A stretch of 64,000 nt of DNA from Dictyostelium discoideum (Eukaryota), in assembly GCA_000004695.1 (NCBI GenBank), contig CM000155.2, positions 3,264,001-3,328,000 of the forward strand, in the 5' to 3' direction. Below are positions 3,019 to 64,000 of the stretch, in pieces. The notes under the pieces were generated by a model. The model was not told the origin of the DNA. It made no database searches and saw nothing but the letters and a program-made list of their open reading frames with translations. The position numbers and the translations under genes were made by a program. The number at the start of each line of letters is the position of its first letter. Within the stretch, counting starts at the first letter, position 1.

Positions 3019-3286
3019 GTAATAAAAAATATTTTTATTTTATTTATTTAATGTATAATAATTTATTGGTTTAATTTTTTTTATTTGTTTAATTTTTTAT
3101 TTTTTTATTACCAAATTTTTATTTTTTTATTTTAATTTTTATTTATTTTTTTCATTTTTCAATTTTCACTTTTTTTTTTTTTTTTTTTATTTTTTTATTT
3201 TTTATTTTATTTGCCCATTGCCAAGCCTTACTTTATTTTTCCAACATATAAAAATAAAAAATAAAAATAAAAAGCACACATATGAA

Positions 3287-3361
3287 ATGAGTTTTAAAGA
3301 TGATGAAATAAATAATTACAATAATATCAATAGTAGCAATTATAATAATAATAATAATAAC

Positions 3362-3410
<49 letters not shown>

Positions 3411-4099
3411 GTGGTGATACAAATTTTGATAGTAGCGATGATGCAATCTTCATCTATGAAGAAGAAATTATACCAATACAGAAAGAACAGCAATCGCCAA
3501 TAATGACACCAGCAACACCAACTACAACAATAATAAATGATAAGCTACAACAACAAGAACAACAAGAACAACAACAACAAGAACAAACAGATAAACAATC
3601 ACATGAAGACCAACAGGATGAACAACAACAAATGGAAGATATAGAATATCAAGATATGGTAATAACAGAATATTCAGATAATAATAAAAGTAATGATAGT
3701 ATAGTAGTTGAAAATGAAAATTATGATAGTATGATTGTAGAAGATGATGTTATGGCAAATGTTAACAAAGAATCACAACTAATTGAACGAGAAGAATATA
3801 ACATACAACAATTTGAAACACCTCCTCAAGAACAACAAGAACAACAAAAAAAACAACAACAACAAGAACAACAACAAGAACAACAACAAGAACAACAACA
3901 AAACCTACAAAAAATAGCAACAACAGGTACTGATATAACAGGTACAGATACAAACATCACTACTACTACTACCACTACTGATACCCCAACCATTAAAATT
4001 AAATATAATGATGAATTATTCTTTAGAATGTGGAAAGATAAAGACATAAGTCAAATTATTTGGAAATGTGTGAAAATAAGGAGTGATCTATACAATACT

Positions 4100-4139
<40 letters not shown>

Positions 4140-6399
4140 ACAATAATAACAATAATAATAATAATAATAATAATATTACAAATAATAGAGTATGGAAATA
4201 TTATCAAACTCATTCATTAGAATGGTTAATTAAAAATAATCATTGGCAATTATTTAAATATCGTTTAAAACGTGGTGATTATATCTCATTCAATGAACAA
4301 TCATTTAAACTTATTCATAAATTATTTGATCAAATTAAATTATATGAAGAAAAAGATGAAAAAGAAAAAGAAAAAGAAAAAGATAATGATAAAAGTATTA
4401 ATAATAATAATAACAATAATAATAGTGAAAAGATAAAAGGTTGTAAATTAGATGGAAATGAAATTAAAGAGATATGGAGTTTATTCTATAGACAATATCA
4501 AACTACATTATTACATTGTTTAGATAATGCAGTAGCGGCAAATAACTTAATAGCTTTACAATCGATTGTAGAGAATTCATCATTTCTAATTCAATATCAA
4601 CCAGATATACAATATAAAGCAATAGCAAGTGGTAATGTTGAATTATTAGTTTATCTTCATAGTATTGGTATCGATTCAAAATTAAATCCCCTATTAGTAA
4701 TTGATTATGCTCAAAAATCTTCAAATGTTAGTAATATGATTAGATATTTAAATAATAAGAGATATAATACAAATAAATCACCCAATGATAATAATAATAC
4801 AACAACAGCGACAACAACAGCGACAACAAGTAACAATAATAAAAATACAACTACTACCACTACTACTACTACCACTACTACAAATACAAATTCAAATTCA
4901 AATTCAAATTTAAATTCAAATTCAAATTCAAATTCAAATTCAACTACAATGAGTAGTTCATCATTACCAAAATCACCAGAAAGTTTTATAACGGATGAAG
5001 ATTTTACAGAAGCAGAGAAAGAATTTTTAGGTTTAAAAGATTGTGTTTTAGTTGATAAAGATAGTATTATGTTACCAAGTTCAAGTTTATTATTTGACCA
5101 TTTAAAGAGTAAAACGGTATTTTATAAATTAGATTATGATTTACAATTGATTTTTGTTAGGGAGAGTAAGAATTGTAAAATTTCATTCTTGGAGGATTTA
5201 GTAAAATGTTTTAATCCTTGGAAAGATCATACACTACAATCGATGGATATTATCAACTATGTGAATATAATGCAAAAGATAATGAAAATGGATATATTTG
5301 GAAGCAAAGGTACAGCTGCATTATCATTATTAGAACTAGCCAATGGATCATTGTTTAGAATTTGTTCAAATTATAATAGTGATAATATCAATATCGATAG
5401 TATTGAAAATAATCAATTACTGTCTGGTAATTTACCAGATAGAGCAACATTAATGGAGTTATTATATAATCAATGGGTATTGCCATTAAAAGATACAACA
5501 TTCAATCAAAAGAATACATGCTATTATAAATCAATCACTCAAGGTAACACAATTGAAGCTGAAAAATTAAGATTTGAACAAATGAAACCATCAATCAACT
5601 ATTTAGAGAAAGCAACCTCTCTCTTGGAAATCTCATTTAGAAAAGCTCATATCCCTTCATTAGAATTATTCTTAAAAATTTATAAATTAAATCATCTTTT
5701 CACTTATGATTATCATAACTTTTTTTCAAATAAATTTCAAATTGATTCAAATTTATTTATAGATTTAAAAGAAGATAATAATAATAATATTAATATTAAA
5801 AATGAAATTAAAGAAGAAGAAGAAGAAAAAGAAAAAGATAATAATAATAATGAATCAATTGAAAAAAAGAAAAAAGAATTTTTAACAGTTTTATTAAGTA
5901 GAACAGAATTTACAAATTCATTCTATATGAATTTAATGATTACATTAATTGAAAAGAGAAAAGATTTTAAATTGGCAGAATTTTGTTTTCAATTTCAAAG
6001 TTGTAAAATTTATCAAACAAATTTATATCAAAGTGCGATAAAGAATAATAGTATTGAATTTTGTAAATTTTTATTTTCAAAATCTGTGAAATTACAAAAA
6101 CAGGATTTAGAACTTTTAACTACAATTCCAAATAATGTGGATTTATTAAAAGAGATTTTAAAATCAAATCAAGTACCATCATTAATTGAAATTTATCATT
6201 TAATGGAAAGATCAATTAAAGATTCAAGATTAGACATTTTAAAATGTCTTTTAGAATCTTTTCCTTCTTCAATGAAATTCGATTTATTAAATTATGCTGC
6301 AAATTTTAATAGAAATGAAATTATTGATTATTTAATGTTAAATCATTCAAATTCAATTAAAACTATAACTAGTAATGGTACATCTCCAAATTCAATATC

Positions 6400-27592: not shown

Positions 27593-27608
27593 TAGAATCG
27601 AACCCTCG
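27593..27608 (-). promoter_or_regulatory. Extra B-box (ex-B box, GGTTCGAATCC-like) ~30 bp downstream of tRNA-Glu
   Basis: The minus strand reads GTCGAGGGTTCGATTC with no acceptor stem, so it is not a tRNA. Ex-B boxes downstream of Dictyostelium tRNA genes are an established feature. Confidence 0.5.
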
Positions 27609-27633: not shown

Positions 27634-27705
27634 CTCCCCATTCGGGAATCGAACCCGAGGTACCAGTGTGAAAGACTAGAGTGTTACCGACTACACCAAT
27701 GAGGA
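27634..27705 (-). tRNA. tRNA-Glu (anticodon UUC), 72 nt
   Basis: The minus strand reads TCCTCATTGGTGTAGTCGGTAACACTCTAGTCTTTCACACTGGTACCTCGGGTTCGATTCCCGAATGGGGAG. The acceptor stem is TCCTCAT/ATGGGGA with one G-U pair. The anticodon loop is CTTTCAC and the T-loop is GGTTCGATTCC. Confidence 0.85.
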
Positions 27706-28375
27706 TTTGGTTGAAACTTTGTTTTCAATAATTTAATAAATTGGTTTTTTCTGAGATCGAAAAAACAAAAAAGATGTTTTAATCAAAAGTAATAATACAA
27801 TTCAAAATTTGAAACAAAAAAAAAAGTAAACTAACCCCTCTTTTAGAGACCCTGTAAATAAACTACAAATAAACTGAGATCTAGCATCTCAAGGAGGAGC
27901 AACTAATAATTGCGTTATTTCAAAAATTAAAGGTTTAATTAGAATTTTAACACATTAATATAAAAATTCGAAATAGAGTATTTTTTTTTTTTTTGAACAA
28001 TTTCTTAAAGAAATTAATCAAATTTTAAAAACAATTTTTTTCGTTCCATCTATTTTTAAAACAATTCTTTTTTTTATCAGAATTTAAAAATTTACTTTTA
28101 ATTATTTTAGATTAATGAATTATTCATTGCCTATTTGAATTATTTGAAAAATAAGTTGTTTAAAATCAATGGGTCATTTTATTTTATTTTATTTTATTTT
28201 TTCTTTTGTATTCTTTTCTTTTCTTTAATTTTTTTTTTTTTTTTTTCTATCTTTAAAAATAGATATTATTTGGATTTTGGTTTTTTAAAAGATTGTTCGT
28301 TTTTCAATAAATGTAAAAATAATACTGTTTGGGAAATAATGGGACAGTTATTTCAATATAAGGGTTATATATAAT

Positions 28376-33589: not shown

Positions 33590-35795
33590 TATTTTTTTTT
33601 TTTTTTTTTTTTTAATATTGGATTAACAAGATTGATATATGTCCATCTGTGTTAATACGAGTTTTATTTAATATTTATTTAAAGGCTTATCATTTAAGCT
33701 GAAGGGTTATTTTAATCATATGAATTGATCAAAAGATATAATATTTGGGAGAGATGATTCTGGAATACAATAGTAATTAGCTGTAGTTTTTCTTAGCTTG
33801 ATCGTTGAAGTGAGAAGGATCTTAGGATCTTTGAAGTTATTATGGTCTTTTGCTGATAAGTTTTTCAGATCTTTTGCTTTTTTGATGTATTCTAGAGTGG
33901 CCAATTTGTGCCATTTCTTTAGAAGGGAGCTGTATGATAGTGATTCATCTGTTAAAGGATCTTCACTGTATATTTGATTGCAAATCCAAATCCAAATGTT
34001 GTGGAGGATAAGGGCCATTAGGTTTCTATATGCGAATGATCTGGTTAGATCATAGTCTATTGCTTTATAGTTCCATTCAAAGTATTCTTTGTGGAATCTG
34101 TGGTTGGCGTAATCTGCATTCACTTCTTGATCTTTTTTGGCTGTCGGTGATAATTTTGGAGTTATTCTATTAATGAAATTGTTATTTTGCCTAATTCTTG
34201 TATGGTGCCAGTTTTTACCTTTGCCTGTGGTAATATAGATGAAATTTTTGAGTTTATTTATTTTTATGAATTGTTTTGTTTTCTTGCATGAGAAGAACAG
34301 GTGACCGTATGGGTCTTTGCTCATATCTTCTTTGCAGAGTGGGCATTGTTTGTTGTGAAGGTAGTTTATTGGAAGGCATCTGGCATGGAATCTAAACATT
34401 GTATCTCTTGTTTTAGGGTCTTTTATCTTCAGTATGTTGTTGAAGAGTTGATTATAGCTGTAGCCTCTTAAGTTTAGAGATGATTGGAATTCCGTTTTAG
34501 GGATGGTTGGATTTTGGTCTTGAATTGTGGTATACCATTCTGCCAGTGAAAGTGGTTGTCCATTTTCGTTTTTTATGGATGTGAGATTATTGTTGAAGAT
34601 TGCTTTTTTTATTCTTATTTTGTTCCATTCGTCTAAGTTTTCTTTTAGGTATCTGGATGTGAATTTGTTTTTTTGGATCTGATATTCCCAGCTTTTGTGA
34701 TGAGATGAGTTTGTTTGTTTGGTTTCTAGTGCTAGGATGAACTGGTTTATGATCCAAAGTTTCTGCGCCAGTTGTCTCAATTCTATATTCCAAATGTTCC
34801 AGCCCCCTACTTTTAGTGGGTATCTTGCTCTTTTGGTTCTCATTAAATTAATAACTTGAAATCCACTAGCATTTTTGTTGTTTGGTGCCGATAAAAACCA
34901 TTCGACTAGTTTATTGATTTGGTTTAATTCCTCTTCCTTAAAGTTCTCTACATATGAATAGTAGGTTAATTTAGAGAGTGCGAATGCTTTGAGGATGTTG
35001 GTTTTGGTTTTGATTGTTGAGTCAGTGGTTTTCCATAGTACTAAGGATGATCTTATTGTGTTTAATATTTCTGGCATTTTTCTTGTTATCCCTTTGCCTG
35101 TGAAGAAGTATCCCAAGTATCTTTCTGGATTTGTAGATATTGGAATTCTTTGGTTGGTATTGTCTGGGTTGCCTATAAGAATTGATGAAGATTTGTCGAT
35201 GTTTAGTTTTGAGGAAGTGGCTTTGCAAAATGAATTGAAGTGTTGTAGTACTAATTCAAGTTGTTGAGAGTCTGGGACCATTGAAGCCGAGTCGTCTGCA
35301 AAGCTTTGGAATTTCTCTCTGTGGTTGCTGTTGTTTAGAGGAAGGCCAGTAATTCGATCATCTTGTAAAATTTTTCTAGCTAAAGCCTCTATTACAAGGA
35401 CGAACAGGGTGGGTGATAGTGGATCTCCTTGTTTAACTCCTCTTTTGATCTCAAAGGGTATAGTAGTTCTACCATTAATTTCAATTCTTGCTTCAGATTT
35501 GGTGAGTAGATTCATTATCAGGTTGATTATATTGGTTGGAATGTTGATGTGTTGTAGTGATCTAAGTATTGAACCGTGTGAGATCGAGTCAAAAGCTTTT
35601 TCGAAATCATATAGTGTAATTATTCCGTTAATTCTTTTATCATTACAATAGTTGATTAATTCGTTCATTGATATGATATTATCTAGAATGAATCTGCCTG
35701 GTACGAAACCTTTTTGATTGTGGTTGATCACTTTCGTTAGTATTGGGATTATTCTATTGTTTATTAGCTTTGAGTGGATTTTATAATATTTTTTA
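33590..35795 (-). mobile_element. 5'-truncated non-LTR (LINE-like, TRE3-type) retrotransposon copy: RT-domain ORF 33716..35731 plus 3' UTR and (A)23 tail; it sits ~65-70 bp downstream of tRNA-Ile in the same orientation
   Basis: RT motifs are present: QKGFVPGRFILDN, FDSISHGSIL, GVKQGDPLSPTLF, FADD. The T23 run at 33590-33612 is a poly(A) tail on the minus strand. The placement after a tRNA ex-B box fits TRE3 target preference. The family call is an inference. Confidence 0.65.
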
Positions 35796-35813
35796 AACCA
35801 ACTAAAAAGAGTT

Positions 35814-35826
35814 GAATTTGGAATCG
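35814..35826 (-). promoter_or_regulatory. Ex-B box (GGGTTCGATTCC) downstream of the minus-strand tRNA-Ile
   Basis: The minus strand reads AAGGGTTCGATTCC about 33 bp 3' of the tRNA end. Confidence 0.5.
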
Positions 35827-35858
35827 AACCCTTGGCTTTTGTTTAGCCAAGGAAAAGT

Positions 35859-35949
35859 TGCTCCATGCGAGGATCGAACTCGCGACCAAAGCATTGCTTT
35901 ATCATACTGATATATAAGTACTTCACTCTACCGACTGAGTTAATAGAGC
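35859..35949 (-). tRNA. tRNA-Ile (anticodon UAU) with an 18-nt intron, 91 nt
   Basis: The minus strand is identical to the plus-strand copy at 48699-48789. It reads GCTCTATTAACTCAGTCGGTAGAGTGAAGTACTTATA[TATCAGTATGATAAAGCA]ATGCTTTGGTCGCGAGTTCGATCCTCGCATGGAGCA. The acceptor stem is GCTCTAT/ATGGAGC. The anticodon stem is AAGTA/TGCTT and the loop CTTATAA gives anticodon TAT. The intron lies 3' of position 37. Confidence 0.65.
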
Positions 35950-36202
35950 ACACAATGATTTTTATTTTTAAATATTTAAAAAAATATATTGAATGGATTT
36001 TAAAATTTAATTTTAATTTTTACCAAATTTTAAAATGAAAATCTTATATAATCATTTAAATTTTCTGATAAAATGGAAATAAGGGTCCACAAGAATTTTG
36101 TTTTAGGATTAAGTACAAAAAATTTCATATTTTCTTAAAATTTTCATTTTTTTTTTTTTTTTTTTTTTTTATTCTTTACATTTTATCTGTGAATAATAAA
36201 AA

Positions 36203-48411: not shown

Positions 48412-48698
48412 TTTGTAATATTAATTATTATTATTTATAAAATGAAGTTATCAAATTTGATTTTTGAAACATAAAAAAAAAAAAAATTTTTTTTTGTTTT
48501 TTTAGAAAAAAAATTTTTAAAAAAAAAATCTTTACTTGAATCAATTTCCAAGACATCCAATTTTTTTTTTAGAGTTTCCTTGTTACTATTTTTTAAAAAA
48601 AAATTTCAAAATTTGTTAGAATCTCTTTTTTGTTACAAAAAAAAATTAAAATTTATTATTACATATTTATTCATTTATTTTCATCAAAAAAATTGTGT

Positions 48699-48789
48699 GC
48701 TCTATTAACTCAGTCGGTAGAGTGAAGTACTTATATATCAGTATGATAAAGCAATGCTTTGGTCGCGAGTTCGATCCTCGCATGGAGCA
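48699..48789 (+). tRNA. tRNA-Ile (anticodon UAU) with an 18-nt intron, 91 nt; identical inverted copy of 35859..35949
   Basis: Same sequence and structure as the minus-strand copy. Confidence 0.65.
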
Positions 48790-48818
48790 ACTTTTTAAGG
48801 CATTCTTACATGGATCAA

Positions 48819-48831
48819 GTGTTCGATTCCC
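48819..48831 (+). promoter_or_regulatory. Ex-B box (AGTGTTCGATTCC) ~30 bp downstream of the plus-strand tRNA-Ile
   Basis: B-box-like GTTCGATTCC with no tRNA structure around it. Confidence 0.45.
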
Positions 48832-51298: not shown

Positions 51299-51354
<56 letters not shown>

Positions 51355-51639
51355 ACTACTTAAATTGGAAGAGGGTTCGGAGCTGCTGGGGTTTGCCAGG
51401 CTTTGTTGAATTTGTATTTGTGAAGATCTTGATTGGTGTTTTTTAGTATTGCTTCGTCGTGTTTGATTTTCTTTAGTGTGATGAATTTTTCAGTTTCGAT
51501 GAGATTTAGTAATTCTGTTTCTATGACCTTTTGCTCGAATTTTGGCTCTGGTTTGCTTTCATCAGTGTTGAACAATTTGTGACAGATTATCTTCCATAAT
51601 TTCCTCTATTTCTTCTTTGAAATCCAATAATTTTTGAAG

Positions 51640-51925
51640 GAAAAGGAGGAAATGGAGGGAAAAAATTAAATTCCTTTTTTTTTCCTTTATTTCCTCAAAA
51701 AAAAAAAAAAACAAAATTCCTCTTTTTCCCTATATTTCCTCGAAAAAAAAATAAAATTACTTTTTTTCCTTTATTTCCTCCTTTTTTCCTTTGTTTCCTC
51801 CTTATTTTCCTTTTTTCCTTTATTTCCTTAAAAAAAAAAAAAAAAAATTCCTTTTTTTCCTTTATTCCCTCAAAAAAAAAAAAAAAAAAAAATTCCTCTA
51901 TTTCCTCTTTTTTTTCTAATAAAAA
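51640..51925. repeat. Tandem minisatellite of ~9 units, each TTCC(T)nCCTTTATTTCCTC followed by an (A)8-20 run
   Basis: Read directly from the sequence. Units are separated by variable A-runs. Confidence 0.8.
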
Positions 51926-52512
51926 AAAAAAAATAATAAAAAATTAAATTTTACATATTAGATTAATAATAATTATTAAAAAACTATATTTAATAAATAT
52001 ACTTGGATTATTTTCTCTAAATTAAAAAAAAAAGAAAAATTTTATCTGTTGATTGAATCACCACACAATTGTTTTTATTTTTATTTTTTTTATAATTATT
52101 TAGTTACAATACGATTCAGAATACTTGGATTGTTATAAAATTATGTTTCCTCAAAAATATTAAAATTAGATTTTTCTCACCCATGTGGTGAATTTTTAAT
52201 GTGGGTTAGAAAAAGTGTAAAACTATAATATATCGAAATCCAAGTCAAACCAAAATTTTTAAAAAATGAGAAAGAGATTATAACATTATTTTATTTTATT
52301 TTATTTTATTTTATTTTATTTTTTATTTTTTATTTTTTTTTTTTTTTTCTTTTTTTTTTTTTCTTTTTTCTTTTTTCTTTTTTCTTTTTTCTTTTTTCTT
52401 TTTTCTTTTTTCTTTTTTCTTTTTTCTTTTTTTTTGTCTTCACCAATTCCCAGAAAAAAAAATTCAAATTATTGTGGAAAATGGAAAATGGAAGATCATT
52501 ATATTTATAAAA

Positions 52513-53149: not shown

Positions 53150-53647
53150 CTGCAAATGACCATGAAGCAATCAATATTATCAATCATTTAATAACTAATC
53201 ACAATAACACATCATTCAATCAATTTACAAACTGGTCAAAAGTAAAATCAAAAATTATAAAAACTCTAAAAAACTATCAATATAACAAAGACAAACAAAC
53301 TCGACGTGCAAAACAAATACTATTAGAAAAAGCAGCAAAATTCAAACATCTTGAAGAACAATGCATCGCTGAATACAATATTATATGTAACAAAAACAAA
53401 CTACATCAAAACCACACAAACATATCAAAAAAACATATAAATGGAGAAATACCTAGCAAGTATCTATCAGCAATACTAAACAAAAGATCAAAAGATGCAA
53501 AAATTGAATCAATCCAATATGGTAACATCATTACATCCGACCCCGACCAAATTGAAGATGCGTTTGTTGAATTCTACACAAATCTATATAGCTTACAAAT
53601 ATGTTGTCCAATTACTCACCAGCTCATGCTAAACACATGGCCCATCA
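53150..53647 (+). mobile_element. Fragment of a non-LTR retrotransposon ORF2 (the region between the endonuclease and RT domains), truncated at the assembly gap
   Basis: An A-rich sense-strand ORF reads ...KRSKDAKIESIQYGNIITSDPDQIEDAFVEFYTNLYS, a motif typical of LINE ORF2. It runs straight into the N-run. Confidence 0.55.
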
Positions 53648-53757
53648 TAAAAAATGANNNNNNNNNNNNNNNNNNNNNNNNNNNNNNNNNNNNNNNNNNN
53701 NNNNNNNNNNNNNNNNNNNNNNNNNNNNNNNNNNNNNNNNNNNNNNNNNNNNNNNNN
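53648..53757. other. Assembly gap (110 N)
   Basis: A run of N characters. Confidence 1.
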
Positions 53758-54746: not shown

Positions 54747-55215
54747 ATGGGTAAGTTAACCACCTTAAACATTGATCGTTTTTACACAGAATATTTTTAT
54801 AAAAATAAAAAAAAAAATAAAAAAAAAAAAATAAAATAAAATAATAGATGGTTTTTTTTTTTTTTTTTTTTTTTTTTTATGATCAAACTAAATTTTATTT
54901 TTAAATATTAAAGAAAACAAAACCATTTAAACAAATAGTGAAAGTAAAGTCTTTTTTGCTAATTAATTTTTCTTTTTTCTTTTTCACAATTTAAGATCAG
55001 CATAAAAGCAAAGAGCAGGAAGTAATTAACAATGAACCAGAGGATTTATTGTTAATAAGAACCTATGGTGACAATTCTAGTGCTCGATCATCAGGTCAAC
55101 TAAATATTCGAGATTCACCAAACAAGCCATTTAACTATCCTTATGTCATTCCACCAAAAAAAGACTTAATAGATTTATTACAAGAACAAGAGTTACAACC
55201 GCAACAAAAAGAACC

Positions 55216-55287
<72 letters not shown>

Positions 55288-55289
55288 GC

Positions 55290-55321
<32 letters not shown>

Positions 55322-56302
55322 GATCAACCACTACAACAACAACTACAACTACAACTACAACAACAACTACAACTACAACAACAACTACAACAACTACAAC
55401 TACGACTAAAAACACTACAATTACAACAACAACTACAACTACTACAACTACAACTACTACAACTACAACAACCACAACAACAACTACAACTACAACTACT
55501 ACAACTACAACAACTACAACAACAACTACAACTACAACTACAACTACTACAACAACAAAAAGCAAAAAAAGTTGATAAGGATTTGGAAATAATTGAGAAA
55601 TTTAAATCAGCAAATGAAAGTTCACTTTCAAAACAAGAAAAAACAGTAAAATTCTATCACAAAGGTACTCTTTACCAATATGGTTTTTCTCAAGAAACAT
55701 TTGATAAAACTATCGATGCCTCATTAAGTGAATTAATGATTAGCATAAATTGTAGATACATAGAGGTGATTGATAAAAATGAAAAAGGTAAAGGAAAAGT
55801 GATCCATGATTTAATTGGTCCAGCCGTATTCAATAATAAGGTAATTAATGACATAATCTTTGGTTTTTGTTACTACGATAAAGAGTTTCGAAATTGCCAA
55901 AAACATTGGTCATTAAGAATAATGGAGCATAGGACAAAATATCCAACAATTTTGAATATATCCATAACCATTTTACGTAACATCCAGGTTAGATGTAAAG
56001 ATATTTATGTAATTTTGGTAAATTTATTAATGGGTCATACTTTAGTCACTGGTTTGAAGTTATTTATTGATAAATTAGTCTCTTTTATCGATGGTCTCGG
56101 AAATAATAAAAAAGTAGAAATCTTTAAAATTGAAGATTTTGAAGAATTAATTCGATTATTCAAATTGGAGTATATGGATTATTCAATATCCATATATACA
56201 AGGGATTATTTTAAAGAATTAAAGAGATATATATATTTACTTCATCTCTTTTCAACCAATAAATTGTCAAATGAAAATGTGTTACCAATAACTCAAAACT
56301 AA
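54747..56302 (+). CDS. Hypothetical poly-Q protein, paralog A of a tandem family; 2 exons join(54747..54750,54996..56302), 436 aa
   Basis: Exon 1 is the micro-exon ATGG followed by GTAAGT. The acceptor TTTAAG at 54995 restores M-D-QHKSKEQEVINNEPEDLLLIRTYGDNSSARSSGQ... A Q33 tract and (QQLQL)n follow. The conserved C-terminal domain reads KVDKDLEIIEKFKSANESSL...IEVIDKNEKGKGKVIHDLIGPAVF... Confidence 0.6.
55216..55322. repeat. (CAA)n microsatellite (~35 units, one CAG) encoding poly-Gln, followed to 55560 by imperfect (CAA CAA CTA CAA)n
   Basis: Read directly from the sequence. Confidence 0.9.
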
Positions 56303-61551: not shown

Positions 61552-61633
61552 GACATCGTAGCGAAGTGGTCTAACGCGTTTGACTTGAAATCAAATCTCC
61601 TAGGAGGCGCAGGTTCGAACCCTGCCGATGTCG
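61552..61633 (+). tRNA. tRNA-Ser (anticodon UGA), 82 nt with a long variable arm
   Basis: The sequence is GACATCGTAGCGAAGTGGTCTAACGCGTTTGACTTGAAATCAAATCTCCTAGGAGGCGCAGGTTCGAACCCTGCCGATGTCG. The acceptor stem is GACATCG/CGATGTC. The anticodon loop is CTTGAAA. The variable stem-loop is CTCCTAGGAG. The T-loop is GGTTCGAACCC. Confidence 0.8.
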
Positions 61634-61689
61634 ACAATTTTAATGTTAATATTAATTAGATACCCGCTTTTTTTTGGCATCTTTATTTC

Positions 61690-64000
61690 TAACGACTAAA
61701 AAGACATTTCTCTTGGCATTTTGATAATAAAAAGCCTACAGTTGATCAAACGGATACTAGATACAGAAAAACATATCCATCATCAATCTAACATCAACTA
61801 CATCTATCTACTCTACACACTAATTCCTTCAATCCTTGGATTGGGAATAAGAATAGATCTGAATAAACGAGAAAGAAAAAAAAAAAAAAAAAAAATAAAA
61901 ATAAAAATCAAAAATATTTTTATATAAACACATAATTAAAAAAAAAATAATAAAAATAATATAAAAAAAAAAAAAAAAAAAAAAAAATGAATTTTTTCGA
62001 TAAACTTAAAGGTGAACTCAACTTAGGCGAAGAAGTTAAATAAAAAAACTATTCAAATAAGGTTATTCTACCCAAATACCTTGGAATTAAATAGTAATTC
62101 AACAAAATTAATAGATAATTTCATAGTTAATGGTACTCTTAACATTGTCAGAAGACAAAAGGGTATAACAGTATTCGGTAGAATACTAAAAGAAAAATTC
62201 ACATTATTACACGAGTGTTACAGCACTTTCAAGTATGAAGATTTCCCACTGCAAAAATTCATACTTTACACCCCAGGATATCACTATGTCCACTTTTACA
62301 CATTTACAAAAAACATAATAAAAAAAATAAACAATCAAATGGTAAAAGAAAACTGGGGATTGGAGCCATTACTAATAGATGAATGCAACATAGTAATGCT
62401 ACCAGATGTGATTAGATATTCATGCATACTATTATTTAATAAAGAAGATGATATCTCAATCATTAAAACAAACATTGATGCTATAAAAGGTAGTAAGCAT
62501 CCAATAAGAGCCTTCATCTCTGAATATAACAATAAAGAAATAAGAGATGTTAGAAAAAAAAAAAACACAAGTAATAAAAACCAACAACCAACAACTACAA
62601 ATACAACTAAATCAATACCATCAACTCCACCAACAACTAATGCATCAACAACCACACCAATAACAACCACACCAATAACAACCACACAAACAACAACCAC
62701 ACCAACAACAACCACACATCAATTACCAACAAGCAATACAACAATCTACAACCTAAACAAAACTACTACTACTACTACTACTACTACAAAACCTATCAAT
62801 AAAATTACTACAAGCAATGGTACCAAGTTTCCAATTGCCAGTAGTATTAGAAAATAATGGAACAATTAAAATTATTACTATGGAACTGCAGAGGTAATCA
62901 ATCAACCAACGCTAAGAATAAAACAGAAGAAACGATAAAAAGAATTGGCACTCAATTAGCACTCCTAACTGAAACTAATTTCAATGGATTCAACCACCAC
63001 AAAACAATGTTCAACTTTGAAAGAATAGATCATGGTTCAGGTAAAGGAACTGGCATAGCAATAGAAAATAGAGATACAAGAAAAGGCCACATATCAATAA
63101 ACTTCAAAGACGATGATGGTAGAATACTATCAATTAAATACAATTCCTTTAATTCTATCAACATATTATTGATCTATGCTCCAGCGACTATATCTGAAAG
63201 AAACACCTTCATAATCAACTCAAAATCACTGTTTAAAAAATATAATTCAATCAACCATCAAATAATAGCAGGCGACTTCAATAACAACCACGATTGCAAC
63301 AGCTTCTTCGGTACTGAATTACGTAAAATAATAGACCAAGACATGCTACTAGATACTGGTATTGAAGAAAACACTCCAACATTTCCAAGATCAATGAAGA
63401 GACTAGATAGAATCTACTGTCATCCAACACTACTAAACCAAAATTCAAAACTGGTAGTCCACAACACAGTATTTAACAAATCAGATCACTTTCCCATCAC
63501 AATCACAATACAAACCAACAGAGAAACAACAACAACAACAACAACCAAACTAGAAAGACTCCCTTGGACATTATGTAAAGAAATTCTCAACAACAAACAT
63601 ATACATGATGGGTTATCAGAATTAATCAGTAAGAACAAAGATAAGATCAAATCAGTGGAGGAATGGACGAAATTTAAAAATAATGTCATCAGAGATTATT
63701 TAAAAAAAGAACAAAACAAAATAAAGAAAGAAAAGAACAAAAGAAAATACGTAATCCACAAATTACTTGGAAATAGTGATATCATTCCAAAGATGAGAAA
63801 AGAACTCAATGAAGAAATAAGTAGAATATTAGAAGAAGAAAGAAAGGTAAAAGCATGGGATATCAAATTAAAACTCCACCTGCATCAAGAAACACCAAGC
63901 AAATACCTCACAAGTATCCTTAAATCCAGAGCCAAAGATAAATCAATATTCCAAATAAAAGATAAAGATAATAAGACCATATCAGATAAAGAGAACATAG
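61690..64000 (+). mobile_element. Non-LTR (TRE3-type) retrotransposon, 5' portion: ORF1 (about 62081..62857) and the start of ORF2 (ATG 62857, AP-endonuclease domain, running off the window); begins <=100 bp downstream of tRNA-Ser in the same orientation
   Basis: ORF2 EEP endonuclease motifs are present: LLLWNCRG, ILLIYAPA, IAGDFNN, LDRIYCHP, SDHFPITI. ORF1's stop and ORF2's start overlap in ATAATGG. ORF1 has a Thr/Pro-rich tail and no in-frame ATG at its 5' end (the track start is a TTG). The exact 5' end of the element is uncertain. Confidence 0.65.

Follow-up and report, generated by a model that had tools for sequence, protein, structure and literature searches.

The two long transposable elements found in the 64-kb window, the whole stretch of DNA that was analyzed, are with high confidence members of the known TRE3 group, the tRNA-gene-targeted L1-like non-LTR retrotransposons of Dictyostelium discoideum. 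Identity, boundaries, orientation, spacing and domain content are established here for both. As the initial annotation had proposed, both are non-LTR (LINE-like) elements, element 1 displaying a reverse transcriptase (RT), a CCHC finger and a poly(A) tail and element 2 an APE endonuclease; both lie on the strand of the neighboring tRNA gene and have their 5' end facing the 3' end of that gene. [quoted passage not shown]

TRE3 insertion behind tRNA genes, as observed at these two loci, is already known biology. Targeting downstream of D. discoideum tRNA genes has been described since 1999-2001 and is covered in several reviews (PMC5006619, PMC5911963), with a TRE present at 61% of the D. discoideum tRNA genes (PMC5006619); the finding is thus correct but ordinary, since this is the usual TRE3 landing place. 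The locus serves as a validation, in that the raw sequence alone was enough to recognize the truncated LINE, the ex-B box and the tRNA with its intron, correctly related to one another, with minor annotation gains comprising (i) the exact boundaries of both elements, (ii) the truncation point of element 1, and (iii) the frameshifted ORF1 of element 2. That the window is D. discoideum DNA is supported by the RT ORF, which is ~100% identical to D. discoideum proteins, and by a 12.5-kb stretch that matches a D. discoideum assembly at 99.3% identity.

tRNA genes and B boxes

The window contains four tRNA genes, two of which are followed by the elements under study:

35859-35949, minus strand: tRNA-Ile(UAU) gene, interrupted at position 37/38 by an 18-nt intron (Rfam RF00005, 52.5 bits)
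35879-35871, minus strand: internal B-box core of tRNA-Ile(UAU), GTTCGATCC (B-box scan)
35859, minus strand: discriminator A73 of tRNA-Ile(UAU) (sequence reading)
35856-35853, minus strand: TTTT Pol III terminator after tRNA-Ile(UAU) (sequence reading)
35830-35820, minus strand: ex-B box behind tRNA-Ile(UAU), GGTTCGATTCC (B-box motif scan)
61552-61633, plus strand: tRNA-Ser(UGA) gene (tRNA searches including Rfam; sequence reading)
61613-61621, plus strand: internal B box of tRNA-Ser(UGA), GTTCGAACC (B-box scan)
~61669-61676, plus strand: T8 terminator behind tRNA-Ser(UGA) (sequence reading)

The reading of an intron-containing tRNA-Ile(UAU) followed by an ex-B box was confirmed by Rfam, by ARAGORN on the spliced gene and by the B-box scan, the removal of the 18-nt intron at the canonical 37/38 site leaving a 73-nt tRNA called tRNA-Ile(tat). 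On the unspliced gene ARAGORN (-i) returns tRNA-Ala(tgc), a call rejected because it requires a non-canonical intron position and because the gene lacks the G3:U70 pair that marks alanine tRNAs, its acceptor stem carrying T3-A70 instead. The ex-B box is located 28 nt past the 3' end of the tRNA gene and 50 nt past the internal B box. The B-box core GTTCGAWYC occurs eight times in the window, compared to 0.44 matches expected, and all eight are either internal B boxes or sites 50-52 nt downstream of one; the same scan of the window discloses no ex-B box behind tRNA-Ser(UGA). Two further tRNA genes of the window, the second tRNA-Ile and tRNA-Glu, have unoccupied sites behind them.

Structure and target site of element 1

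Element 1 and its parts are arranged as follows:

33592-35785, minus strand: element 1, 2194 bp, a TRE3 copy (most likely TRE3-A) with a truncated 5' end (blastn against the full-length copies L001 and L002)
35786-35794, minus strand: AAAAAATAT(T), upstream copy of a candidate target-site duplication, abutting the 5' junction (sequence reading)
33716-35785, minus strand: ORF2 remnant, 689 codons and stop (ORF list and translation)
33715-33614, minus strand: 3'UTR, ending ...CCAATATT (sequence reading)
33613-33592, minus strand: poly(A) tail, 22 nt (sequence reading)

Read from 35785 to 33592, element 1 aligns at 99.4-99.9% identity (blastn) with the last 2194 bp, positions 3061-5254, of the 5254-bp full-length element. 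Missing from it are the 5'UTR and ORF1 and, from ORF2, the first 545 aa together with the APE endonuclease. It is a 2.2-kb 3' fragment, unable to move on its own; of the two elements only element 1 is 5'-truncated, element 2 being 5'-complete. A tblastn comparison with P0001 matches aa 371-1059 at 99.9% identity without stops. The ORF2 remnant comprises an RT domain with a FADD motif (Pfam RVT_1, PF00078, E=1.4e-24) and, at its C-terminal end, a CCHC zinc finger (CPLCKEDMSKDPYGHLFFSC). The L001 and L002 copies have the same 3' end as element 1.

A 73-nt spacer, first estimated at ~65-70 bp, separates the 3' end of tRNA-Ile(UAU) (35859) from the 5' end of element 1, both in the same orientation, which places that end 34 nt past the ex-B box and 94 nt downstream of the internal B box. 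The description of the element as lying next to the ex-B box is accurate as such, the adjacency being not necessarily causal, since element 1 also lies 94 nt from the internal B box, where ~100 nt is usual.

A target-site duplication had been anticipated at the 5' junction, and a candidate can be read there: the string preceding the element recurs at the poly(A)/flank boundary (33597-33589(8)), as A6TAT(T), a low-complexity string. The pre-insertion site is predicted to read ...GGTTTAAAAAATAT(T)GTGTAATG..., with one A6TAT(T) copy. The search for an empty site followed the neighboring NUDIX gene into other assemblies (L003, L004, L005), none of which offers a clean one: (i) the near-identical strain (L003) carries the insertion; (ii) the orthologous locus of a divergent strain (L004) is without the 2.2-kb element and displays a decayed remnant that weakly matches the C-terminus of TRE3-A ORF2 (E=0.004); and (iii) D. 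citrinum (L005) shows nested fragments.

Family assignment of element 1

Full-length copies of the family of element 1 comprise 5254 bp, with a 417-aa ORF1 and a 1234-aa ORF2 bearing an APE N-terminus; ORF2 opens in the -1 frame, as published for TRE3, with an ATG (L001 4183) that overlaps the stop of ORF1. An ORF at 55049-56302 of the window, also of 417 aa, was considered as a TRE3-A ORF1 on account of its equal length and rejected as an unrelated poly-Q host ORF.

The family is most likely TRE3-A, as judged by elimination, abundance and length. It forms the most abundant cluster, with 79 members, and published TRE3-A has a consensus of 5229 bp and 67 copies. Two anchors come from dictyBase naming: P0008 is 97% identical to DDB_G0291686, 'TRE3-B ORF2' (PMC12405889 Table 2), and cluster 9 (representative P0025) includes DDB_G0269056, 'TRE5-A ORF2'. 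The ORF2 of the family shares 44% identity with the dictyBase-named TRE3-B, compared to 32-34% with the TRE5 types, and element 1 is not TRE3-B itself, the divergence being too great for one family. Protein databases gave no family names, since the relatives all bear generic product names ('hypothetical protein' or 'reverse transcriptase domain-containing protein'), and a full-text literature search found no dictyBase product name for the gene of this family. The best relatives of the elements are tRNA-associated TRE families, in keeping with the initial annotation, which had named Tdd, DDT and Skipper as the contrary outcome.

Element 2

Element 2 is defined by comparison with a copy in L002, to which it is 98.3-98.6% identical (blastn):

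61729-64000, plus strand: element 2, 5'-complete start of a second TRE3 element that runs past the window end (blastn against L002)
61734-61986, plus strand: 5'UTR
61987-62857, plus strand: ORF1, frameshifted near 62030 in comparison with the L002 copy
from 62857, plus strand: ORF2, its ATG overlapping the ORF1 stop (TAATG, 62855-62859) (sequence reading)

The 5' end, at 61729-61734, is set by the L002 copy, which begins directly after a preceding poly(A), so that element 2 starts 95-100 nt after tRNA-Ser(UGA), on the same strand; the start first placed at 61690 (~55 nt from the tRNA) has to be moved ~40 bp further on. Between ORF1 and ORF2 the reading frame changes by -1 (from frame 2 to frame 1), and ORF2 encodes an APE endonuclease domain (Pfam Exo_endo_phos, PF03372, E=1.8e-10). 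A 164-aa ORF neighboring the element is elsewhere on record only on contigs of ~1.2 kb.

The 5' terminus of element 2 resembles that of the family of element 1 (GATCAA..GGATAC.AGATACA). The ORF2 comparison between the two gives 24% identity in the N-terminal region (endonuclease and linker; a weak match of 31 bits) and 42% in the RT region, and on these values elements 1 and 2 are assigned to different TRE3 families. The closest relative of element 2 is the ORF2 of P0015 (DDB_G0269266 type), with 53% identity over APE and linker and, as judged from the L002 copy, 66% in the RT region. The RT region alone shows 38-42% identity to TRE3-A/B versus 38-39% to the TRE5 types, and over the endonuclease and RT regions identity to any named family reaches only 29-39%. 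It is thus the position of element 2 and its relative P0015, and not clustering by sequence, that carry the TRE3 assignment, the RT being about equally near the TRE5 types (38-39%) and TRE3-B (38%). Element 2 falls in the TRE3-C/D clade as a member distinct from the P0015 family, and may be either TRE3-C or TRE3-D.

Element 2 could alternatively represent a TRE3-like lineage outside the four named families. Its identity of only 53-66% to the P0015 family points in this direction, as does the fact that published TRE3-D is a 1559-bp partial sequence with no full-length copy, whereas element 2 spans at least 2.27 kb with a complete 5' end. Against this, the downstream-type families found here number four (family 1, TRE3-B, the P0015 type and the element-2 type), equal to the published count (TRE3-A to D), and the TRE3-D consensus may be short simply because it was reconstructed early and incompletely; a lineage of its own is thus improbable, and membership of the TRE3-C/D clade is preferred. 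There is some small chance that the locus holds something new, either because element 2, together with the orphan 3' fragment at 51348-51600, reveals an undescribed TRE3 structure, which may be the missing 5' two-thirds of 'TRE3-D' or a fifth family, or because TRE3-A sets its insertion point at exactly 44 nt from an ex-B box wherever there is one.

Position relative to tRNA genes

Three full-length copies of the family of element 1 were resolved elsewhere, 62 nt behind a tRNA-Asn gene, 95 nt behind tRNA-Phe and 68 nt behind tRNA-Thr, all on the same strand as the tRNA. In the five cases examined, the orientation always matches that of the tRNA, with the element 5' end nearest to it, and the internal B box lies 83-121 nt from the element start; both cases having an ex-B box show 44 nt from this box to the element start. 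TRE5 elements are known to insert on the upstream side, 40-54 bp away from the tRNA gene and oriented opposite to it, and a P0022-type (TRE5-like) fragment in L001, taken as a control, agrees with this placement, ending 48 nt upstream of a tRNA-Thr gene, head to head.

This difference in placement argues strongly against both elements being of the TRE5 group and having come to lie behind these tRNA genes through neighboring tRNA genes or rearrangement. Element 2 is about equally distant from TRE5-A and TRE3-B, with its low identity to anything named, and in RT-domain-only trees of the literature TRE3-C groups with TRE5. Nevertheless, both elements are downstream and on the tRNA strand, no further tRNA gene occurs where TRE5 placement would require one, the family of element 1 is nearer TRE3-B (44%) than TRE5-A (32%), and the TRE5-type control is positioned differently, so that a TRE5 origin is very unlikely. 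The tRNA-Glu gene of the window also has a fragment upstream of it, a 3'-UTR module that is probably of TRE5 type.

Chance adjacency, by which untargeted LINE-like insertions would happen to lie near tRNA genes, draws on the compact genome with its many tRNA genes (four in this window) and on two other TRE-like fragments of the window, at 51348-51600 and 53188-53655, that are TRE3-like and adjoin no tRNA gene; no hidden tRNA gene was found beside the orphan fragment at 51348-51600, nor did ARAGORN detect one at the locus of a TRE3-B copy (L008), where the ORF2 gene and the 8 kb flanking it in either direction were scanned. In contrast, the starts of both long elements of the window, and of all three full-length copies that could be cleanly resolved, lie 62-100 nt behind a tRNA gene on the same strand, and the published genome-wide tally places 60 of 67 TRE3-A copies within 14-228 bp of one. 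The zone 40-150 nt downstream of the four tRNA genes, on the same strand, covers ~0.35% of strand positions, and therefore two independent insertions would both fall in it with an estimated probability of ~1e-5. The claim that two instances in one window are no coincidence is borne out, and chance adjacency is effectively refuted.

The LTR retrotransposon Skipper-2 (formerly DGLT-P) also lands downstream of tRNA genes, at reported distances of 8-23 bp in D. discoideum and up to ~130 bp in other species. It can be dismissed for practical purposes, since element 1 has a poly(A) tail and a CCHC finger after its RT, element 2 has an APE endonuclease, and full-length copies contain no LTR, protease, RNase H, integrase or chromodomain.

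Proposed mechanism

The arrangement of the TRE3 elements can be accommodated in a model in which TRE3 RNA, together with the ORF2 protein (APE endonuclease, reverse transcriptase and zinc finger), would be recruited to a Pol III-loaded tRNA gene, the contact most likely being TFIIIC bound to either B box, internal or external, as the literature suggests. The endonuclease would nick the DNA ~100 nt downstream of a B box, and the RNA would be copied in place from its poly(A) end by target-primed reverse transcription, as proposed from the literature, which would leave the element on the tRNA strand with its 5' end nearest the tRNA. In element 1, an early stop of reverse transcription or of second-strand joining would have caused the 5' truncation. 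Targeting via the Pol III complex and the B box (TFIIIC) has been put to experimental test only for TRE5-A; for TRE3, the spacings observed here (83-121 nt to the internal B box; 44 nt to the ex-B box in two of two cases) are correlative.

Comparison with known systems

Compared to TRE3-A as published, the family of element 1 displays no detected difference and shares (i) a non-LTR organization with two ORFs, (ii) an ORF2 comprising APE, RT and zinc finger, (iii) the -1 frame, and (iv) an oligo(A) end; the lengths, compared by published description, are 5229 bp for the consensus and 5254 bp here, and the window copy preserves the 2194-bp 3' fragment only. TRE3-B (P0008) is the closest named relative of the element 1 ORF2, with the 44% identity extending over 848 aa and an identical domain order. 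TRE3-C/TRE3-D (P0015 type) resemble element 2 in being positioned behind a tRNA gene. TRE5-A and TRE5-B have architecture, ancestry (32-34% ORF2 identity to the family of element 1) and tRNA-gene targeting in common with the elements described here, but insert ~48 bp upstream and head to head with the tRNA, unlike elements 1 and 2. Yeast Ty3 and the Dictyostelium DGLT-A and Skipper-2 elements likewise target Pol III genes, a safe haven in compact genomes; these are, on the other hand, LTR elements that use an integrase and thus a different chemistry, and most of them insert upstream.

tRNA genes and external B boxes

The window is very AT-rich; its RT ORF is ~100% identical to Dictyostelium discoideum proteins, and a 12.5-kb stretch around the locus of element 1, the TRE3 copy behind the first tRNA-Ile gene, shows 99.3% identity to one D. 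discoideum assembly. Four tRNA genes were identified by Rfam.

tRNA genes (Rfam) and downstream ex-B boxes (B-box scan)
about 27634-27705, minus strand: tRNA-Glu
27595-27603, minus strand: ex-B box of tRNA-Glu
35859-35949, minus strand: tRNA-Ile(UAU), first copy
48699-48789, plus strand: tRNA-Ile(UAU), second copy, identical to the first
48821-48829, plus-strand gene: ex-B box of the second tRNA-Ile
61552-61633, plus strand: tRNA-Ser-UGA

The 91-nt gene running from 35949 to 35859 yields a canonical cloverleaf after excision of an 18-nt intron, TATCAGTATGATAAAGCA, between positions 37 and 38, and the spliced sequence is recognized by ARAGORN as tRNA-Ile(tat). The Ala(tgc) label given to the unspliced gene by the ARAGORN intron option was rejected: it requires a non-canonical intron position and is also ruled out by the acceptor stem, where T3-A70 replaces G3:U70, the alanine-specific pair. 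With this option both tRNA-Ile(UAU) genes are mislabelled tRNA-Ala(tgc) (35857-35950 and 48698-48791, intron at position 36) and without it both are missed entirely, an annotation pitfall for eukaryotic tRNAs with introns.

The B-box core GTTCGAWYC matches eight times in the window, versus 0.44 expected, comprising four internal B boxes and second copies 50-52 nt downstream (3/3 cases) behind tRNA-Glu and both tRNA-Ile genes. These second copies are ex-B boxes; the same scan disclosed none at tRNA-Ser. Rfam, ARAGORN and the B-box scan all bear out the tRNA-Ile(UAU), intron and ex-B box named in the initial annotation. The second tRNA-Ile(UAU) has its own ex-B box and no TRE3 behind it, and is therefore an unoccupied target.

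Structure of the two elements

Element 1 (35785 to 33592, minus strand) matches positions 3061-5254 of a full-length relative (L001, 2758-8011) that measures 5254 bp without its poly(A) tail and comes from a different D. discoideum assembly; identity is 99.4-99.9%. A stop-free stretch of 689 ORF2 codons remains and encodes a CCHC finger as well as an RT domain (Pfam RVT_1, E=1.4e-24) with the FADD motif; after it come a 102-nt 3'UTR finishing in CCAATATT and 22 nt of poly(A). Of the 1234-aa ORF2 the first 545 residues are gone, along with the 5'UTR, ORF1 and the endonuclease, and the copy cannot move autonomously. That it is almost identical to intact copies suggests insertion in the recent past.

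Junction of element 1 (minus strand)
35859: tRNA-Ile 3' end
35856-35853: TTTT terminator of tRNA-Ile
28 nt: spacer from the tRNA-Ile end to the ex-B box
35830-35820: ex-B box of the first tRNA-Ile
34 nt: spacer from the ex-B box to element 1
35785: element 1 5' junction

Element 1 begins 94 nt past the internal B box and 44 nt past the ex-B box; downstream placement, as initially annotated, stands, the spacer from the tRNA measuring 73 nt rather than ~65-70 bp. The candidate target-site duplication AAAAAATAT(T), found on both sides, is consistent with an insertion without proving one, because its sequence is low-complexity and runs into the poly(A) tail.

Element 2 follows tRNA-Ser(UGA) on the same strand, with 98.3-98.6% identity to a copy at another locus, L002. 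Because that copy starts with GCCTACAGTTGATCAAACGG immediately behind the poly(A) that ends the element before it, the comparison fixes the 5' end of element 2 at 61734, or 61729 if five preceding A residues are included, 95-100 nt past tRNA-Ser and 116-121 nt past its B box, replacing the 61690 first proposed. A 250-nt 5'UTR precedes ORF1 (61987-62857), which, compared with the intact 291-aa ORF1 of L002, is frameshifted near 62030; the ORF2 ATG shares TAATG with the ORF1 stop (-1 frame), and ORF2 encodes an APE endonuclease domain (Pfam Exo_endo_phos, E=1.8e-10) and extends past the window end. Only element 1 is 5'-truncated. The 5' termini of element 2 and of the family of element 1 (family 1) are alike (…GATCAA..GGATAC.AGATACA…), a resemblance that argues for common descent.

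Family assignment

Four TRE3 families have been published, namely (i) TRE3-A (consensus 5229 bp, 67 copies), (ii) TRE3-B (5279 bp, 43 copies), (iii) TRE3-C (4734 bp, 29 copies) and (iv) TRE3-D (1559-bp partial consensus, 11 copies), together with three TRE5 families. According to dictyBase product names reproduced in a recent paper, DDB_G0291686 is 'TRE3-B ORF2' and DDB_G0269056 is 'TRE5-A ORF2'; the ORF2 type P0008 is 97% identical to the former, and the P0025 cluster includes the latter. Pairwise ORF2 comparison joins family 1 with TRE3-B (44%), the P0015 type with the element 2 family (53-66%) and the P0022 type with TRE5-A (42%), identity between members of different pairs being 31-42%. 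Because family 1 is the biggest cluster (79 members) and measures 5254 bp, it is most likely TRE3-A, by inference rather than by direct alignment to a reference consensus; the names TRE3-C and TRE3-D would then fall to element 2 and P0015, in either order. The TRE3 assignment initially made is supported for both elements, which belong to two different TRE3 families.

Placement as a family trait

Independent full-length family 1 copies at three other loci start 62 nt past tRNA-Asn(GUU) (L001), 95 nt past tRNA-Phe(GAA) (L002) and 68 nt past tRNA-Thr(AGU) (L006), each on the strand of the tRNA. As a control, a P0022-type ORF2 fragment (42% identity to TRE5-A) has the opposite orientation to a tRNA-Thr gene and stops 48 nt upstream of it, in agreement with published TRE5 insertions; a location downstream on the same strand is therefore peculiar to these families and no general trait of this genome's repeats. 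In both family 1 cases with an ex-B box (window 35785; L006 7831) the element starts exactly 44 nt past the G of the ex-B GTTCGA core, a sample too small for a rule (n=2). The other three of five measured junctions, without an ex-B box (two family 1 copies, including L001 2758, and element 2), lie 83-121 nt from the internal B box.

In other assemblies the tRNA-Ile and NUDIX gene neighbours are kept and the content behind tRNA-Ile differs: a near-identical strain (L003) carries the identical insert of 2.2 kb, a divergent D. discoideum strain (L004) has only a decayed ~170 bp remnant with a weak match (E=0.004) to the C-terminus of TRE3-A ORF2, and D. citrinum (L005) has nested element-2-family fragments plus the tail of a TRE3-A. 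None of the three therefore offers a clean empty site for element 1, and the pattern suggests that distinct TRE3 fragments ended up behind this tRNA gene in separate lineages.

Other TRE fragments

An orphan 3' fragment of TRE3-C/D-type ORF2 (51348-51600, minus strand; T-run about 51309-51351) shares 54% identity with the P0015 C-terminus over its final 80 aa, after which comes a poly(A); it has no detectable tRNA gene nearby, relaxed Rfam thresholds included, and directly adjoins a 45-bp tandem repeat array (51660-51937). An internal fragment at 53188-53655 (plus strand; 51% protein identity to TRE3-B ORF2 aa 109-209) likewise adjoins no tRNA gene. The ~115 bp at 27827-27940 (plus strand) are 81-85% identical to a repeated 3'-UTR module after a TRE5-type ORF2 in L001 and lie 120-235 nt upstream of tRNA-Glu in opposite orientation, as expected of a short TRE5 remnant; if so, TRE-derived sequence occurs at three of the four tRNA genes. 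The 417-aa ORF at 55049-56302 (plus strand), with a long poly-glutamine tract, has the length of TRE3-A ORF1, yet is unrelated to it; this ORF accounts for the anomalous G+C and skew at 55-56 kb.

At L008 (8001-11328), a TRE3-B copy has an intact 1058-aa ORF2 and ARAGORN detects no tRNA gene within 8 kb each side of the ORF2 gene, which could reflect an array, a rearrangement or a missed tRNA. Tandem and nested TRE arrays, known from the literature, also occur at the examined loci. At L002 8538-8778, a 160-bp TRE3-A 3' tail with poly(A) lies within the 5'UTR of the element-2-family copy, bounded by an 8-10 bp duplication, (AA)CATCAACT, a clean target-site duplication with no B box adjoining, which suggests that, within tandem arrays, one TRE3 element can insert into another.

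Mechanism and comparison with known systems

The APE endonuclease, RT, poly(A), variable 5' truncation and short flanking duplication point to insertion by target-primed reverse transcription, as in L1-type elements, and the constant distance from B boxes suggests that the Pol III transcription complex would be recognized for targeting, a process dissected experimentally for TRE5-A only. The initial observation is confirmed and its interpretation supported, with small corrections. Published TRE3 elements share the orientation of the tRNA gene and sit 40-150 bp downstream of it, following either its internal B box or an ex-B box; the ex-B spacing of 50-52 nt found here is shorter than the 'about 100 bp' given in one review. 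TRE3 elements behind tRNA genes are textbook knowledge for D. discoideum, and its genome annotation already includes them.
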